Shown: piece after piece, positions 13,642 to 19,600 of the stretch
Layout of the letters: the number at the start of each line of letters is the position of its first letter
Numbering within the stretch: position 1 is the stretch's first letter
DNA from: Longimicrobiales bacterium
GTDB taxonomy: Bacteria; Gemmatimonadota; Gemmatimonadetes; Longimicrobiales; Gaopeijiaceae
Direction of reading: 5' to 3'
Length of the DNA stretch: 64,000 nucleotides
Assembly (NCBI GenBank): GCA_965226375.1
Contig: CBDDCX010000008.1
Coordinates: forward strand, 1,120,001 to 1,184,000
Made by a program: the position numbers

Positions 13642-16600
13642 TGATGCTCGACTCGTTCACCCTCATTTCGGGCCCATGCGCACTCGAGGATGACGATCTC
13701 AACGTCGAAATCGCTCGTCGATTGGCGCTCCTGTCGTCGAGTCTGGGAATTCCGGTGGTGTTCAAGGCTTCGTTCGACAAGGCCAATCGTTCCCGACTGG
13801 ACTCCGAGCGCGGCCCGGGCCTCGAAGCGGGACTGGAGCTCCTGCGGCGGGTCAAGGACGAGACCGGGCTGCCGACCCTCACCGACATCCACGAGGCGAG
13901 CCAAGCCGCGTCGGTGGCTCAGGTGGTCGACGTTCTGCAGATCCCGGCGTTCCTCTGCCGTCAGACCGATCTCCTCACTGCCGCAGGTGCTACGGGCAAG
14001 GTGGTCAACGTGAAGAAGGGGCAGTGGATGTCCCCGGAGGACATGCGAGGCGCGGTTGAGAAGGCGCAGAGCGCTGGGGCGGCCCAGCTGGCGATCACGG
14101 AGAGAGGGACCTTCTTCGGGTATGGGAACCTCGTGGTCGACATGCGCTCCTTTCGGCGTATGCGGAAGGTCTGCGACGTGCCGATCATCTTCGACGGTAC
14201 CCACTCCGTGCAGCGTCCCGGACAGTCGGACGGATCCACTGGAGGCGATCCCGAGTTCATTACGCCGCTGGTGTTGGCCGCCGTGGCGGCGGGATGCGAC
14301 GGTTTGTTCCTCGAAGCCCATCCGAATCCGCACCAGGCACCCTCGGACGGCAGCAACATGCTTCCGCTCGACGACCTCGAACCGCTCGTCGAGGAAGCCC
14401 TCGCGGTGCGCGCCGCCCTCGGGAGCCCATCGCCGTCGGCTTCCTCGCTGCCGGCTTGAACGCTTATGGAAGAGCGACGAGAAGACATCCCCCCCGACCT
14501 GGCGCTTGCCATTCGGCTCGTGGTGCTGGATGTCGACGGGGTTCTCACCGACGGGGGGATCTACGTCGGGGCCCAGCCGGGTGGCGAGACCTCGGAGTTC
14601 AAGCGCTTCGATATCCAGGACGGCCTAGGCGTGAAGATGCTCGGATGGGCCGGGATCGAGGTGGTCATCGTGTCAGGACGGATATCGGAAGCCACCACGA
14701 GAAGGGCCAGCGAGCTCGGCATAACGGAGTGCCACCAAGATCCGGGAGCCGCCAAGCTTCCCGTAGTGCAAACGCTCCTTGACGAGCGTGGAGTAGCATG
14801 GGAAGAGACCGCGATGGTCGGTGACGACTTGGCGGACCTGCCCGTCCTCGAGCGAGTCGGCCTTCCGGTTGCCGTGGCCAACGCCGTCCCCGAGGTACAT
14901 GACGTATCCGGGTGGATCACCACGGCTCGGGGTGGAGCGGGTGCCGTGCGGGAATTCGCTCGGGCCTTACTCATGGCAAGGGGCGAGTGGGACCGATTGG
15001 TCCAAGAGTACTGTGACGCCCGCTCGGGGTCCTGACGCCGTGAGCGGCGAGCCCGATGTCCCCACCGATTCCGAGCGGGTTCTCCAGGAGGCCAGGCGAG
15101 TCCTGACCGTCGAGGCCCAGGCCGTACAGCGCCTGGCGGAGCGCATCGGCGATGATTTCGTGGAGGCAGTGAATCTTCTGACCGGCTGTACCGGCCGAAT
15201 CATCGTATCGGGCATCGGCAAGAGCGGAATTATCGGTCGTAAAATGGCCGCCACGTTCACATCCACCGGCACGCCCGCGAACTTCCTTCACCCGGTAGAA
15301 GGACTCCACGGGGACCTGGGGATCGTCGGGGCAGACGACGTGGCCATCCTGATATCCAAGAGTGGGGAGACGTCGGAGCTGTCGGGACTGGTGGATTATT
15401 TCCTCCAAGCAGGGGTTCCGATCGTGGCGCTGACGGGCGATCCGAAATCTCCTCTCTCTGCCCTTGCCGCTGTGGCGCTGGACTGCTCGGTGGACGAAGA
15501 GGCCTGTCCCATGGATCTGGCTCCCACCTCCTCGACCACAGCCACACTGGCTATGGGGGACGCCTTGGCCGTGGTCCTACTCCAGCAAAAGGGTTTTCGG
15601 GAACAGGATTTTGCCCTGCTCCACCCCGGAGGATCCCTGGGACGAAAGCTCACGTTGCGTGTAGAAGACGTGATGATCACCGAAGGGTACCCATACCTCC
15701 GAAGGGAGGCCTCGATGCGGGACTGCATCGTCCCGTTGTCCGAGCAGCGAGGGACGGTGCCTATCGTCGATGAGGACCAACAAGTCGTCGGAGTCGTTAC
15801 CGCTGGCGATCTGACCCGCTTGATGGAGCGCCGGGAGGATTTCCTGGACGTGCCTGTCACGGTAGCGATGACCCTTGCACCCAAGGTGGCCCACGCCGAG
15901 GAGCTAGGCTCAGCGGCGATCCACCGCATGGAAACTCACGGCATCATGGCCTTGCCCGTGGTCGATGAAGACCAACGTTTGGGGGGAATCGTCCACCTTC
16001 ATGATCTCATGAAGGCAGGGGCCCTATAGTCATGGTACGTAATATTTTACGAGTGATCGTCCTGATCTTGGTGGGGGGTCTGACGACTTGCGAAAACCCA
16101 CGCCAGGAGGCGGTGGTCGATCCGGAACTGGAGAATATCGAAGCCGACTATATCATCTTCGGCAACCGCCACTACCTGACACGCCAGGGGATCCGTGAAG
16201 CCCTCGTGGTGGCAGATACTGCCTATTTTTTCAACGACTCCACGGTGGTACTTCTCAGGGGCAACGTGACGTTGACCGCCTACCACGAGGACATTGGGAC
16301 CGAGAAGGCCGTGGTCACCTCAGACCGCGGCCGCCTGAACACCAACGACAACTCCATGGTCGCGTACGGTAACGCCGTGCTCGTGATTGCCGAGGGCCAG
16401 CGTCGTATCGAGAGCGCCGAGCTCAACTATCATCCGGAGCAGGACCGGATCTGGAGTGATTCAGCGACGGTTATGTACGAGGGCCAGAGTATCGTGGAGG
16501 GAAGCGGATTCGACGCCGACCTCGACTTCGACCAGGTGCTGGTGCGGAACGCCCGCACCCGGGGCGGCACCGTCCGCTTCTGATGCGGCGCCATCTCTCG

Positions 16601-19600
16601 CTGCTTTATATCCTGCCGGTCGTGTTCCTGTGGGGGGTAACGGCTGTCGTCGCTCAGGATCGTACGTGTGACCTGATCGACTCCCGCCAGGTCAACTCCA
16701 TTACCCAGACCGGTGGGCGGGTAAGCCACGTCACTCGTCCACGCTTTCTGTGTACCGACGGCACGCGCATCGAAGCCGACTCCTCGGTGACGTTCGAGGC
16801 GAATTCCTTCACGCAGCTCTTCGGTAACGTGCTCTTCCGTGACGGCCCCCAAGAGCTCTTGGCAGAACGAGCCCAGTACTTCAGCCGCGCGGGCCGTCTT
16901 CAGGCTCAGGGCTCGGTGAGCCTGACCGATCTAGACGACGGGTCGACCATCACAGGCGAGAACCTGATCATGCTTCAGGCCGGGGACGACCGCCCGGAAG
17001 ACGACATGACCATGCGCGGCGGCCGCCCACATGCTCGCTTCCTGTCGAAGGCGGTGCCCGTATCCGACAGCCTTCCGGCCGACGAACTCGCGCCGGACAG
17101 TATCGAAGTCGAGCCTCGGCTCGCGGACTCGCGGCCGGATTCGCTGCCGGACTCGATCATGGTTGAACCTGATACGATGGCTCTTGAGGAGGCCTCGGCA
17201 GACACGTTGGAAGTCGAGGTCGTCGAACCCGAACCACCGGCCCCTCCGACAACCTTCGATGTCGATGCCGATATGATCCGTCTGGTGGGAGACCAACTGT
17301 TCCAGGCGCGCGGGCGCGTAGAGATTCGCCAAGACTCGCTTTTCGCGTACGGTGACTCGATGCAGTACGCGGAGGACATCGGCACCCTCACGCTGTTTCA
17401 TAATGCACGCATCCTCTCTCCGAACGAGGAATCCGGTGACACGCTCGACGTGAGGGGTGACACCATCGATATGCGACTTCCGAACAATCGCATCGATGAA
17501 CTCGAGGCGCGTGGCCACGCCCACCTGGTCACGGAGTCCGTCGACATGAGGGGCCCCATCGTCCGGATCTTCTTTGTACGTGAAGAACTGGATCGTATCG
17601 TCTCGGTCTTGGGCGCATGGCAGGAAGAAGCGCCCGTCGAGGAAGATCCGTCCGTTGAGGAAGAGAGTGATTCTCTCGAGGTCGAGGTGCCCGACCCCTT
17701 CGCGCGACCACAGGCGACGGCCGAGGACTTTCTCCTGACGGGGGACTCCATAGAGGTGAAAACGCCTGGGGGAGACTTGGAGAGCGTCTTCGCGTCCGGT
17801 GGGGCCCACGGAGTCTCCAGCGGCCGGAGCTCCCTGAACGCCGAGAACGCGCCCGAGTTCATTCGGAACGATTGGATCGAGGGTCAGACCATCACCGCGA
17901 CATTCGTCGAGAACGTGCCCGATTCCACCCCTCGGTCGTCCGCCCCCGGCGAGAGTCGCTACCGTCTCGACTTGTTGGTGGCGCAGGGCGGGGCCCGAAG
18001 TTTCTACCGCTCCGCTGCGGATTCGACCGCCGAGCCCGGCGCCAGCCCGAGCCCACTCGAGCTCAACTATGTGATCGGGGACGAGATCAGGCTGTTCATG
18101 GACAACGGAGAAGTCGATCGTGTGGAGGTGGACAACGCTACGGGAGCCTATTTCCAGCCGGACGGCTCCGGGGCCCCGGCGGGTGAGGCCCCAGTGGGTG
18201 ATACGCTAACGGCTCCACCGCCAGATACTTCGTCCACGTCGCGCGGGCGTAGCAACCCAACAGAGGAAAGCCGCACCAATGAGCGACTTCAACCGAGACT
18301 TCGAAATCGCTGACGCTTCCGAAGAAAACGCGGTGAGTGCCGTGATTTCTCAGCTCCCGACCAAGAGTCGCCTCTTCGGTGAGGGTCTGACCAAGGCCTA
18401 CCGAAAACGGCGTGTCGTAGACGGAATCGCCATTTCAGTCGAGCAGGGCGAGATCGTCGGGTTGTTGGGTCCGAACGGCGCAGGCAAGACCACCACGTTC
18501 TATATGCTCGTAGGGCTGATTCCCTCCGATGACGGTAAGGTCTATCTGGACGACCAAGAGCTCACCTCCATTCCGATGTACCGCCGGGCGCGAATGGGAG
18601 TGGGATACCTCGCCCAGGAGCCGTCTGTATTTCGGAAGCTCACGGTCGAACAAAACGTGAAGGCCATCCTCGAGACGCTCAAGCTTTCCCGGGCGGAAGA
18701 GAAGGCCCGTCTGGAGGAACTGTTGGGCGAGCTCTCCCTCGGGCACCTGCGTACCAACAAGGCCTACTCGCTCTCGGGAGGGGAGCGGCGGCGGCTGGAG
18801 ATCACACGTGCCTTGGTACAACGGCCCAAGTTCATGCTGCTCGACGAGCCGTTCGCGGGCATCGATCCCATTGCCGTTCACGATATTCAAGCCATCGTGG
18901 CCAGCCTGAAACAAAGGGGGATCGGGGTCATCATTTCCGACCACAACGTTGAACAAACCCTGGAGATCGTGGACCGAGCGTACATTATGTATGAGGGTAA
19001 GATTCAGGTTAGCGGCACCGTTTCGGAGTTGGTCTGGAACGAAGACGTGGCCGAAATCTACCTGGGGCCGACGCTCACGGAGCGTATGCGGGGCCGATAT
19101 GACCGGCCTCCCGGCGCTGAAAGCAAGATGGCGCCGCCGGCGCCGGAGACCGACGAAACCGATTCGTAGCGAGTTGCACACGACTTCATGAGCGGATTCA
19201 GCACGAGGCTCTTCCAGAGCCAACAGCTCCGTCAGGAGATGAAGATCAACCCTCGCCTCTACCAGGCGATGGAGTTGCTCTATATGCCGCTCCTGGACCT
19301 TCAGCAGCACCTGAAAACGGAGATGGAAGAGAACCCGTTCTTGGAGATGACCGAGGCCGATGTTCAGGATGAGGTAGAACTCCAGGAGGATGACAAGGAC
19401 GATACGCCCGACGACGACATCGACTGGGAGGAAATTCTCCTGGACGGCTTCGATGCCGGGGGACGACGGGAGCAATACGAGGTGCGAGAGCACTTCGAGC
19501 GGGCCCCGGTCGAAACAACGGACCTGAGGGATCACCTCTACGGACAACTTCGGATGCTCGACATCACCGAGCGAGGAATGCGCCTCGGAGAGGAGATCAT

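Follow-up and report, generated by a model that had tools for sequence, protein, structure and literature searches.

The LPS-bridge position between lptC and lptB

The slot between lptC and lptB is where E. coli encodes LptA (YhbN; PDB 2R19 and 2R1A) and P. aeruginosa encodes LptH (4UU4), both of them periplasmic OstA-type beta-jellyrolls that consist of a single domain of about 175-185 aa. According to a section of a published account (PMC10863985), LptA units are joined into a bridge by non-covalent head-to-tail contacts, and their number is still unknown. In the window (a stretch of 64,000 nucleotides from a Longimicrobiales bacterium of the Gemmatimonadota), the same slot is occupied by an ORF of 576 aa.

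Gene order, assigned by Pfam and NCBIfam, is kdsB, pyrG, kdsA, kdsC, kdsD, lptC, the 576-aa ORF, lptB and rpoN (Table 1), with the Kdo synthesis genes and pyrG upstream of lptC in identical orientation; a glycosyltransferase operon follows rpoN. The ORF begins with the first start codon available in its frame, and its overlaps with both neighbours are as an earlier note had described them. At a TGATG junction, the last base of the lptC stop codon TGA (16581-16583) is the first base of the ATG of the ORF, and the lptB ATG at 18279, preceded by a GAGGAA motif, lies upstream of the stop codon at 18311-18313, so that lptB overlaps the end of the gene by 35 nt, counting the stop codon. The lptC product has an N-terminal hydrophobic segment up to Cys20 (GLTTC), a cysteine conserved among homologues, and a jellyroll after it.

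Table 1. Features of the lptC-lptB region and of the 576-aa product, in window coordinates
Feature	Coordinates	Strand	Details
kdsB, pyrG, kdsA, kdsC, kdsD	11180..16029	+	Pfam matches
lptC	16032..16583	+	183 aa; PF06835 E 1e-11; TIGR04409 59.4 bits vs cut-off 38
three-jellyroll LptA-equivalent gene	16583..18313	+	576 aa plus stop
probable Sec signal peptide	16583..16657	+	residues 1-25, MRRHLSLLYILPVVFLWGVTAVVAQ followed by D; by inspection
domain 1	16667..17044	+	residues 29-154; Lpt beta-jellyroll
linker 1	17045..17251	+	residues 155-223; disordered; Asp/Glu/Pro-rich; pLDDT about 47-55
domain 2	17252..17608	+	residues 224-342; beta-jellyroll
linker 2	17609..17710	+	residues 343-376; disordered, acidic; pLDDT about 58
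domain 3	17711..18154	+	residues 377-524; Lpt beta-jellyroll
C-terminal tail	18155..18310	+	residues 525-576; disordered; pLDDT 39-44
lptB	18279..19169	+	296 aa; TIGR04406 E 1.3e-105, residues 33-265
rpoN (sigma-54)	19188..20693	+	PF04552, PF04963, PF00309

Three jellyroll domains in one chain

An AlphaFold2 model built from 36 sequences (pLDDT 79.6, pTM 0.74) contains the three all-beta domains on disordered acidic linkers that had been reported before; about 30% of its residues are disordered, and the linkers and C-terminal tail have low pLDDT. Linker 1 carries six D-[ST]-[AILVMT] motifs, and the tail, which ends in basic residues, has a high content of Pro, Thr and Ser. By inspection, the N-terminus has a basic n-region, a hydrophobic core and an A-x-Q site, with 'AAQ' kept across alignment A1 and a model helix at residues 10-22; from these sequence features the protein is predicted to be Sec-exported and periplasmic.

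LptA and LptH are the best structural matches of domains 1 and 3. Domain 1, in which Cys57 is invariant and Cys29 nearly so, aligned (VIA-align) with LptH 4uu4 (Z 15.8, rmsd 1.9, 121 residues aligned on 24-155), with LptA (2r19, Z 15.0; 2r1a_C, Z 16.6) and with LptC 4b54 (Z 15.6). The Lpt nature of domain 3 had been argued through hhalign only; folded alone (pLDDT 88, pTM 0.80) and searched against 48,161 PDB chains, it also proved to be an LptA/LptH-like jellyroll, matching LptH with Z 12.9 (107 aligned, rmsd 2.7) and LptA with Z 11.4, and the best 11 of the 48,161 chains were all Lpt proteins, the next having Z 5.5. Among the three domains, only domain 2 matches LptA/LptD_N at the sequence level: the A1 profile matched the PDB sequences of LptA (8onu, E 5.9e-5), LptD (7omm, 6e-4) and LptH (1.9e-3), in all three cases on profile positions 196-313, and family matches comprise OstA_2 on 242-293 and TIGR03002 on 252-281. 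Alignments with LptA that start at domain 2 are 8gaj and 8gak only (on 223-420, rmsd 8.3). These sequence matches support the assignment of domain 2 as a probable Lpt-type jellyroll.

The relaxed family search of the earlier note was reproduced (LptD_N on 63-121, E 4e-4; OstA_2, E 7.9e-3). Its statement that the protein has no Pfam call holds for any single stretch, none of which exceeds the cut-off, but not for the whole-protein LptD_N score, which at 21.0 bits is just above 20.4; the curated LptA model TIGR03002 scored 16.8 bits, far below its cut-off of 71.7. Comparison of the domains with each other by hhalign gave a probability of 81% (E 1.2e-5) for domains 2 and 3, over 32 columns only, and 24.5% for domains 1 and 2, weaker than the 61% obtained earlier, and found nothing between domains 1 and 3. 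For the gene that fills the lptA slot, the data support a product in which three Lpt-type jellyrolls form a single secreted chain.

Search for another lptA

A six-frame search of the genome with PF03968 gave its best match inside lptC (E 5.9e-3) and two weak pieces in the frame of the 576-aa ORF; a match in an ABC-F ATPase was rejected as spurious. An ordinary lptA was found neither in this genome (90% complete), as the earlier note had also concluded, nor was a short lptA or other LptA candidate found in 201 sampled Gemmatimonadota genomes. PF03968 matched 23 of these 201, and the open frames that hold the 24 matches are all 326-850 aa long; when compared with the listed rows of the 576-aa family, 10 of 11 comparable matches fell within the locus of the three-domain protein, and the remaining one, in genome G120, has no such row among those listed. 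The genome has a complete set of lpx, kds, lptBCFG and lptD genes, with LpxC, LptF, LptG, LptD_2 and the kds genes among the matches, and its own LptD is a 998-aa protein of the LptD_2 type.

Distribution across Gemmatimonadota

The family is present in all 201 sampled genomes, 196 of which were matched by the A1 profile and the other five by a query from the same genus, and is a phylum-wide orthologue in the Gemmatimonadota sampled. Of 80 named loci, 76 have lptC upstream and 77 have lptB downstream, and all seven missing neighbours are at contig ends; wherever the contig extends far enough, the gene is flanked by lptC and lptB. Three domains are encoded in one frame in 77 of the 80 loci, and in these 77 the length of linker 1 ranges from 10 to 198 aa, that of linker 2 from 10 to 80 aa and that of the C-terminal tail from 7 to 189 aa, so that the number of domains is steady at three while linker length differs about 20-fold. 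In deep-branching families, frames of 361-467 aa contain all three blocks. At E <= 1e-30 there are 221 matching cluster representatives, and most of the 150 listed among them are of 450-800 aa. Two frames or a cut gene were observed in three of the 80 loci and in genomes G132 and G189, the break in G189 being a run of N. Positions 16514-18472 of the window are covered, with 0-2 substitutions and no gaps, by a 1959-base contig in assemblies of four public runs, each from a different study; the source sample itself may be one of these runs.

Predicted stacking of the domains and docking on LptD

The LptD N-terminal jellyroll (5IV9, 9KN3, 4Q35) has the same fold but is longer than LptA and is attached to an outer-membrane barrel, whereas the 576-aa protein has no match to the barrel domains PF04453 or PF19838. 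Because of this greater length, alignments with LptD N-domains run over 160-172 residues, from domain 1 into residues 265-301 of domain 2, and the elongated sheets of MORN proteins and junctophilin can be aligned with about 200 residues between residue 28 and 413-518. From pTM and these domain-spanning alignments, which are indirect evidence, the domains are predicted to stack in line as one continuous sheet.

A complex of domain 3 with LptD residues 60-260 was predicted with a score of 0.76, against 0.00 for the best control; 116 of 157 solved complexes attain this mark, as do 2 of 215 mismatched pairs (rough counts, since our own alignment was used), and as the controls were unrelated proteins and not other jellyrolls, the score has no power to tell which domain docks on LptD. 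The runs agreed in at least 87% of contacts, with partner pLDDT of at least 74. In the prediction, the LptD N-terminus pairs with the final two strands of domain 3 (510-524), LptD 96-108 running antiparallel to residues 514-525, in the canonical geometry of an LptA C-terminal edge on an LptD N-terminal edge. Resemblance to Lpt edge pairings already known may account for the score.

The protein is likely to be the LptA orthologue of Gemmatimonadota, with three LptA-type jellyrolls stacked in one chain as the bridge. Domain 1 would dock on LptC through its free N-terminal edge and take lipopolysaccharide from it; the three domains, permanently stacked head to tail, would form one continuous groove; domain 3 would use its C-terminal edge to pass lipopolysaccharide to the N-terminal jellyroll of LptD, which is of the LptD_2 type; and the push would come from LptB2FG, as the E. 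coli model has it. The linkers, acidic and rich in proline, would bulge out from the stacked domains without making them longer; long linkers are not required by such a design. One chain would make up one bridge, its number of units fixed, and might serve as the ruler that the earlier note proposed. The earlier proposal of a covalently concatenated LptA stands as to the three Lpt jellyrolls, the lptA slot and the lack of a rival lptA, but for in-line stacking, to which it had itself opposed the flexible linkers, it has predictions only.

A permanent stack need not exist if the linkers only keep real Lpt jellyrolls near each other, with bridges forming and breaking fast, one to three domains in line at a time, and a spare domain serving as an LPS buffer or docking sideways. 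The two linkers are long, with a pLDDT of 47-59 that marks them as disordered, at least 10 aa of linker are found in every locus, and a section of PMC10863985 treats the E. coli stoichiometry as unsettled, one LptA having been modelled as sufficient. The pTM, the continuity of structural alignments over domain boundaries, the constancy of three domains despite linker drift from 10 to 198 aa and their retention in the compact-frame lineages argue against such a loose arrangement, which is considered unlikely. Still less probable is that chains serve as building blocks and associate with one another head to tail, leaving the number of units in a bridge not fixed at three: the free edges of domains 1 and 3 are of the kind that makes LptA-LptA contacts, and isolated LptA makes long oligomers (PMC10863985, in the section cited), but six units at about 35-40 A each would be longer than the E. 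coli spans modelled in 10.1101/2023.04.28.538765.

That the protein carries lipopolysaccharide in its host is presumed. An OstA-fold carrier of another lipid or of lipoproteins, or an envelope glycosylation scaffold, with LPS crossing otherwise, would accord with the great distance from curated LptA models, with linker arrays that resemble glycosylation sequons, with the glycosyltransferase operon after rpoN, and with the co-purification of Bacteroides LptA with surface lipoproteins reported in a portion of a preprint (bioRxiv 10.64898/2026.10.02.756314); the constant lptC-lptB placement, the lack of another LptA candidate in the 201 genomes and the complete LPS gene set make this very improbable. 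A mis-assembled or frame-fused gene, as the few split or cut loci might suggest, is refuted for practical purposes by the 77 single-frame loci, the gap-free contigs of four studies, the lengths of the cluster representatives and the run of N in G189.

Relation to known systems

The three-domain chain differs from LptA and LptH in the covalent joining of its jellyrolls by disordered linkers. Bacteroidota OstA-family proteins in the ESM Atlas, of about 520 aa with PF03968, PF13100 and PF06835 matches on one chain, resemble it by language-model features (score 0.93, 16 clusters); this possible multi-domain likeness is only a lead, and the preprint cited above treats Bacteroides LptA (BT_3849) as a single component. 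No paper describing a three-domain single-chain LptA was found in the open-access literature, but the novelty is smaller than claimed earlier: the protein is a phylum-wide orthologue of which some members were already named LptA by JGI. With the preferred reading of a stacked bridge, one three-unit chain would replace, in the whole phylum, the small LptA that stacks into the LPS bridge, and the three units per chain hint at the number that a bridge requires.

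Fold of the three domains

An alignment of 36 full-length homologues of the 576-aa protein (A1) contains three conserved blocks with hypervariable stretches between them, and the AlphaFold2 model built from A1 (pLDDT 79.6, pTM 0.74) bears out the division of the chain into three all-beta domains that had been made in the earlier note: d1 (residues 29-154), d2 (224-342) and d3 (377-524), with linker 1 (155-223), linker 2 (343-376) and the tail (525-576) disordered. Among 48,161 PDB representatives, d1 matches LptH (4uu4; Z 15.8, rmsd 1.9, 121 of 143 aligned) and LptA (2r19, Z 15.0; 2r1a_C, Z 16.6), and LptD and LptC also match. 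The Lpt character of d3, proposed before that domain had been searched by itself, held when it was modelled alone (residues 370-530, using A2, the slice of the alignment for d3 with the same homologues; pLDDT 88, pTM 0.80): d3 matches LptH at Z 12.9 (107 aligned, rmsd 2.7), and the 11 top rows are Lpt jellyrolls only (LptH, LptA at Z 11.4, then LptD, LptC and LptF), the best unrelated row being at Z 5.5. In a Foldseek search of d3 against the PDB no row reached E <= 1e-3; LptA and LptH make up all of the first 11 rows listed, at E 0.017-0.36.

Sequence-level matches of the A1 profile to PDB sequences are confined to d2 (LptA, E 5.9e-5; LptD, E 6e-4; LptH, E 1.9e-3), all at profile positions 196-313. 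These matches, together with alignments of LptD N-terminal domains that run continuously into d2 from d1, support a probable place for d2 among the OstA-type jellyrolls; in the structural alignment of the full model, LptA rows that begin at d2 have an rmsd of 8.3. Sequence comparison does not demonstrate internal duplication of the domains, as the hhalign matches between them are faint (d2-d3, probability 81% over 32 columns; d1-d2, 24.5%; d1-d3, 1%); if duplication was the origin of the three domains, it would have to be ancient.

Among the 36 homologues Cys57 is invariant and Cys29 nearly so. Both residues lie in the first strands of d1, a position that points to a possible disulfide at the d1 edge expected to meet LptC.

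Relation of the protein to the LptA class

In LptA each chain is a single jellyroll of about 160-185 aa, and the bridge is built by non-covalent oligomers. The protein has LptA-type OstA beta-jellyrolls, recognized in d1 and d3 by fold match and in d2 by sequence and LptD N-domain alignments, and its gene lies between lptC and lptB in the window and in related loci, but its 576 aa hold three jellyrolls rather than one, as do its relatives in 77 of 80 loci. Its N-terminus is signal-like by inspection and conserved in A1, and the model has no further hydrophobic helix. Family models give weak matches, LptD_N at residues 63-121 (E 4e-4), OstA_2 at 242-293 (E 7.9e-3) and TIGR03002 at 252-281 (E 4.7e-3), the first two as previously noted. 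The remark that Pfam makes no call on this protein stands for single stretches, all of which score below the cut-off; it does not stand for the protein as a whole, which reaches 21.0 bits against PF03968 (LptD_N), above the cut-off of 20.4. Against the curated LptA model TIGR03002 the score is 16.8 bits, under the cut-off of 71.7.

Assignment of the protein to LptC was rejected, as its TIGR04409 score is 12.8 bits (E 0.063), short of the cut-off of 38, and the adjoining gene is the LptC. Assignment to LptD was rejected as well: neither PF04453 nor PF19838 gives a barrel match at E <= 1, the model ends in a disordered tail, and the genome carries its LptD at another locus.

Gene context and integrity of the reading frame

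The gene begins with an ATG whose first base is also the last of the lptC stop codon (TGATG), and its last 35 nt overlap lptB. In four public runs, which come from as many studies and one of which may be the source sample, a single 1959-base contig spans positions 16514-18472 with 0-2 substitutions and no gaps, and this recurrence argues that the frame is no assembly accident. None of the public runs listed for the stretch is an RNA data set. The gene is in two frames in three relatives (L015 in genome G132, L038 and L046), the break falling in linker 1 so that d1 is apart from d2-d3, and in another (L016 in genome G189) it is interrupted by a run of N. Because the second piece of a split gene would be without a signal peptide, a sequencing error or a pseudogene is the more likely explanation, ahead of a true split into two proteins.

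The LptB family model covers residues 33-265 of the 296-residue LptB encoded in the window, which is slightly extended at its N-terminus and ends in an acidic, proline-rich tail; in the LptB relatives of L015 the N-terminal extension is much longer (375-aa ORF).

Features of the window and of the LptD locus
Feature	Position	Strand	Remarks
kdsB	11180-11983	+	First gene of the run
pyrG, kdsA, kdsC, kdsD	Between kdsB and lptC	+	In this order
lptC	16032-16583	+	PF06835/TIGR04409; adjoins the three-domain gene; identified as the LptC
LptC N-terminus	16032-16100		Signal-like, hydrophobic
Gene for the 576-aa protein	16583-18313	+	Between lptC and lptB
Cys29 to Cys57	16667-16753		In d1
Linker 1	17045-17251		Disordered, motif-bearing; relatives in loci L029-L108
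Linker 2	17609-17710		Disordered, motif-bearing; relatives in loci L029-L108
Tail	18155-18310		Disordered, motif-bearing; relatives in loci L029-L108
lptB	18279-19169	+	Overlaps the end of the three-domain gene; ATG preceded by GAGGAA motif
rpoN	19188-20693	+	After lptB
Family-2 glycosyltransferase gene	20693-21655		Starts on the last base of rpoN
LptD, 998 aa	L005:787-3783 (own genome G000, contig C8, 804198-807194)		LptD_2 type; PF19838 only

Search for a separate lptA

The earlier note's statement that no ordinary lptA is found elsewhere in the genome was confirmed within an assembly that is 90% complete: PF03968 matches only lptC, the frame of the three-domain protein and, on contig C4, a stretch within an ABC-F ATPase that was dismissed as a chance match. 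Six-frame searches of the same genome with PF13100 and PF04453 found nothing, the latter alongside an LptD that is assigned to the LptD_2 type. HMMs of d1, d2 and d3 match only the protein itself, lptC (d1 HMM, E 7.8e-4) and one further site, a weak d3-HMM match at C8:702591 that was discarded as chance, the translation being by eye that of a succinate dehydrogenase-type flavoprotein. The genome also holds LpxC, LptF, LptG and kds genes. Across 201 sampled Gemmatimonadota genomes PF03968 revealed no separate short lptA; it matches 23 of them, and all 24 matches are in open frames of 326-850 aa. Eleven of the matches could be compared with listed rows for the three-domain protein, and ten of them fall inside its locus; the eleventh is in genome G120, which has no listed row for that protein.

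Distribution and conservation in Gemmatimonadota

The 80 related loci carry Gemmatimonadota titles (Longimicrobiales, Gemmatimonadales and others) except for one 'uncultured bacterium' and one MAG labelled Acidiferrobacteraceae, and the nearest, at 69% identity, is from a Longimicrobiales MAG. The three domains occur in order in one frame at 77 of the 80 loci, the others having a frame change inside linker 1 (two) or a cut at a contig end (one); the gene follows lptC in 76 and precedes lptB in 77, the seven misses all falling at contig ends. Matches to the A1 profile occur in 196 of the 201 genomes sampled, representing 99 of 99 genera, a tally that becomes 192 of 197 without four genomes flagged unpublished (G057, G097, G157 and G182). 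Loss of the protein from the five genomes missed by A1, all of one genus, was rejected: these are misses of sensitivity, because a query from the same genus gave full-length homologues in all five. In the three deepest families (five genomes examined), the matched blocks are in single frames of 361-467 aa, with blocks 1-3 in three genomes and blocks 2 and 3 only in the other two. A library of 1.84 billion cluster representatives yields 637 relatives with E <= 1e-3, of which 221 reach E <= 1e-30; lengths of 450-800 aa predominate among the 150 listed. Homologous proteins were sought at 316-1008 aa, and what is said here about fused or split forms is confined to that range.

In the 77 loci with all three domains in one frame, the length of linker 1 is 10-198 aa (median 42), that of linker 2 is 10-80 aa (median 23) and that of the tail is 7-189 aa. 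Because the number of domains is constant while the length of the linkers runs free, we infer that it is the domains rather than the linkers that determine the span.

Linker motifs and a putative lipid anchor on LptC

The motif D-[ST]-[AILVMT], which resembles the O-glycosylation signal of Bacteroidota, occurs 496 times in the linkers and tails at the 77 loci, versus 62 expected from within-segment shuffles, a count that is inflated by tandem repeats and by the relatedness of the sequences. None of three control motifs shows enrichment. In the protein encoded in the window the motif is at residues 162, 172, 186, 190, 197, 207, 363 and 540. The glycosyltransferase gene that adjoins rpoN could be linked to these motif arrays.

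The hydrophobic N-terminus of the LptC encoded in the window ends in a conserved cysteine (GLTTC), and in its relatives (loci L029-L108) the context of this cysteine is mostly A/G-C-E/D/T/G. Of the 76 LptC frames, a relaxed lipobox pattern fits 60 and a strict one 30; in most of the others a cysteine can be seen there by eye. Judged from these sequences, LptC in Gemmatimonadota may be a lipoprotein, not a transmembrane-helix protein.

Predicted stacking of the domains and predicted contact with LptD

A pTM of 0.74 in a chain with approximately 30% of its residues disordered indicates that the model is confident about the relative placement of the three domains. LptD N-terminal domains, which are longer than d1, align over 160-172 residues (rmsd 3.0-3.5), from residues 20-30 to residues 265-301, crossing linker 1 into d2; elongated beta-sheets of MORN and junctophilin proteins can be aligned for some 200 residues, between residue 28 and residues 413-518. 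On the strength of the pTM and of these domain-spanning alignments, d1, d2 and d3 are predicted to stack into one continuous sheet.

The N-terminal 238 residues of the LptD of this genome match no Pfam family; by language-model features the region resembles LptD_N clusters (score 0.95, to be read as a lead only). Long acidic low-complexity inserts follow the PF19838-matched region of this LptD. Complex prediction for d3 with LptD residues 60-260 scored 0.76, the best of three controls scoring 0.00; 116 of 157 solved complexes attain that mark, as do 2 of 215 mismatched pairs, counts that are a rough guide only, with our own alignment as input. In these runs contact agreement was at least 87% and partner pLDDT at least 74. 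The predicted pairing is antiparallel, between LptD 96-108 and residues 514-525 in the last strands of d3, the same geometry as is known for LptA and LptD. The score may stem from likeness to known Lpt contacts, and it does not single out d3 among the domains as the one that docks on LptD.

Proposed mechanism and stoichiometry of the bridge

In E. coli, LPS is pushed along the bridge by LptB2FG. The protein would be exported by Sec, as its N-terminus suggests; by analogy, d1 would dock on the C-terminal edge of LptC; the grooves of d1, d2 and d3 are predicted by the model to join into one; d3 is predicted to dock on LptD; and LptB2FG would drive LPS along the chain as in the E. coli system. 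One source describes the number of LptA per bridge in E. coli as unknown (PMC10863985), and another gives models with one to five LptA units, each adding about 35-40 Å, for spans of 185-325 Å (bioRxiv 10.1101/2023.04.28.538765); in published E. coli models, a bridge of three LptA fits a membrane centre-to-centre distance of about 260 Å. One chain may make one bridge here, but the unpaired edges of d1 and d3 might also allow chains to join to one another.

Where the earlier note described a covalently concatenated LptA of three units, we tentatively go further, to a reading that is possible but somewhat more doubtful than probable: that selection has fixed the periplasmic part of the bridge throughout the phylum at exactly three covalently joined LptA units, placed between LptD and an LptC that probably has a lipid anchor, with loops that drift about 20-fold in length and carry motif arrays like the O-glycosylation signal of Bacteroidota.

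Implications

No paper on a multi-domain LptA or on the Lpt bridge of Gemmatimonadota was found in open-access full text. The identity of the protein as a relative of LptA is already present in databases, as 10 of 120 listed homologues are called 'LptA' by JGI and 22 have a precomputed OstA-type Pfam match (PF03968 or PF13100). Genome annotation mostly misses the family, 98 of the 120 being without any Pfam match, so that LptA may be recorded, mistakenly, as missing from Gemmatimonadota when Lpt genes are surveyed across phyla. Look-alikes in the ESM Atlas include clusters from Bacteroidota that are approximately 520 aa long and have several matches to OstA-type Pfam families, so an LptA with more than one jellyroll may be common beyond the Proteobacteria.

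If the proposed reading is true, the protein would give a natural measure of the stoichiometry of the bridge in one phylum at least, namely three units of the size of LptA, and would supply a ready-made bridge that does not dissociate, stays intact through purification and could aid cryo-EM of the complete bridge; the linker motifs would hint that the Lpt bridge can be a glycoprotein. A single chain of three units also permits a test of whether the length of the bridge tracks the width of the periplasm.
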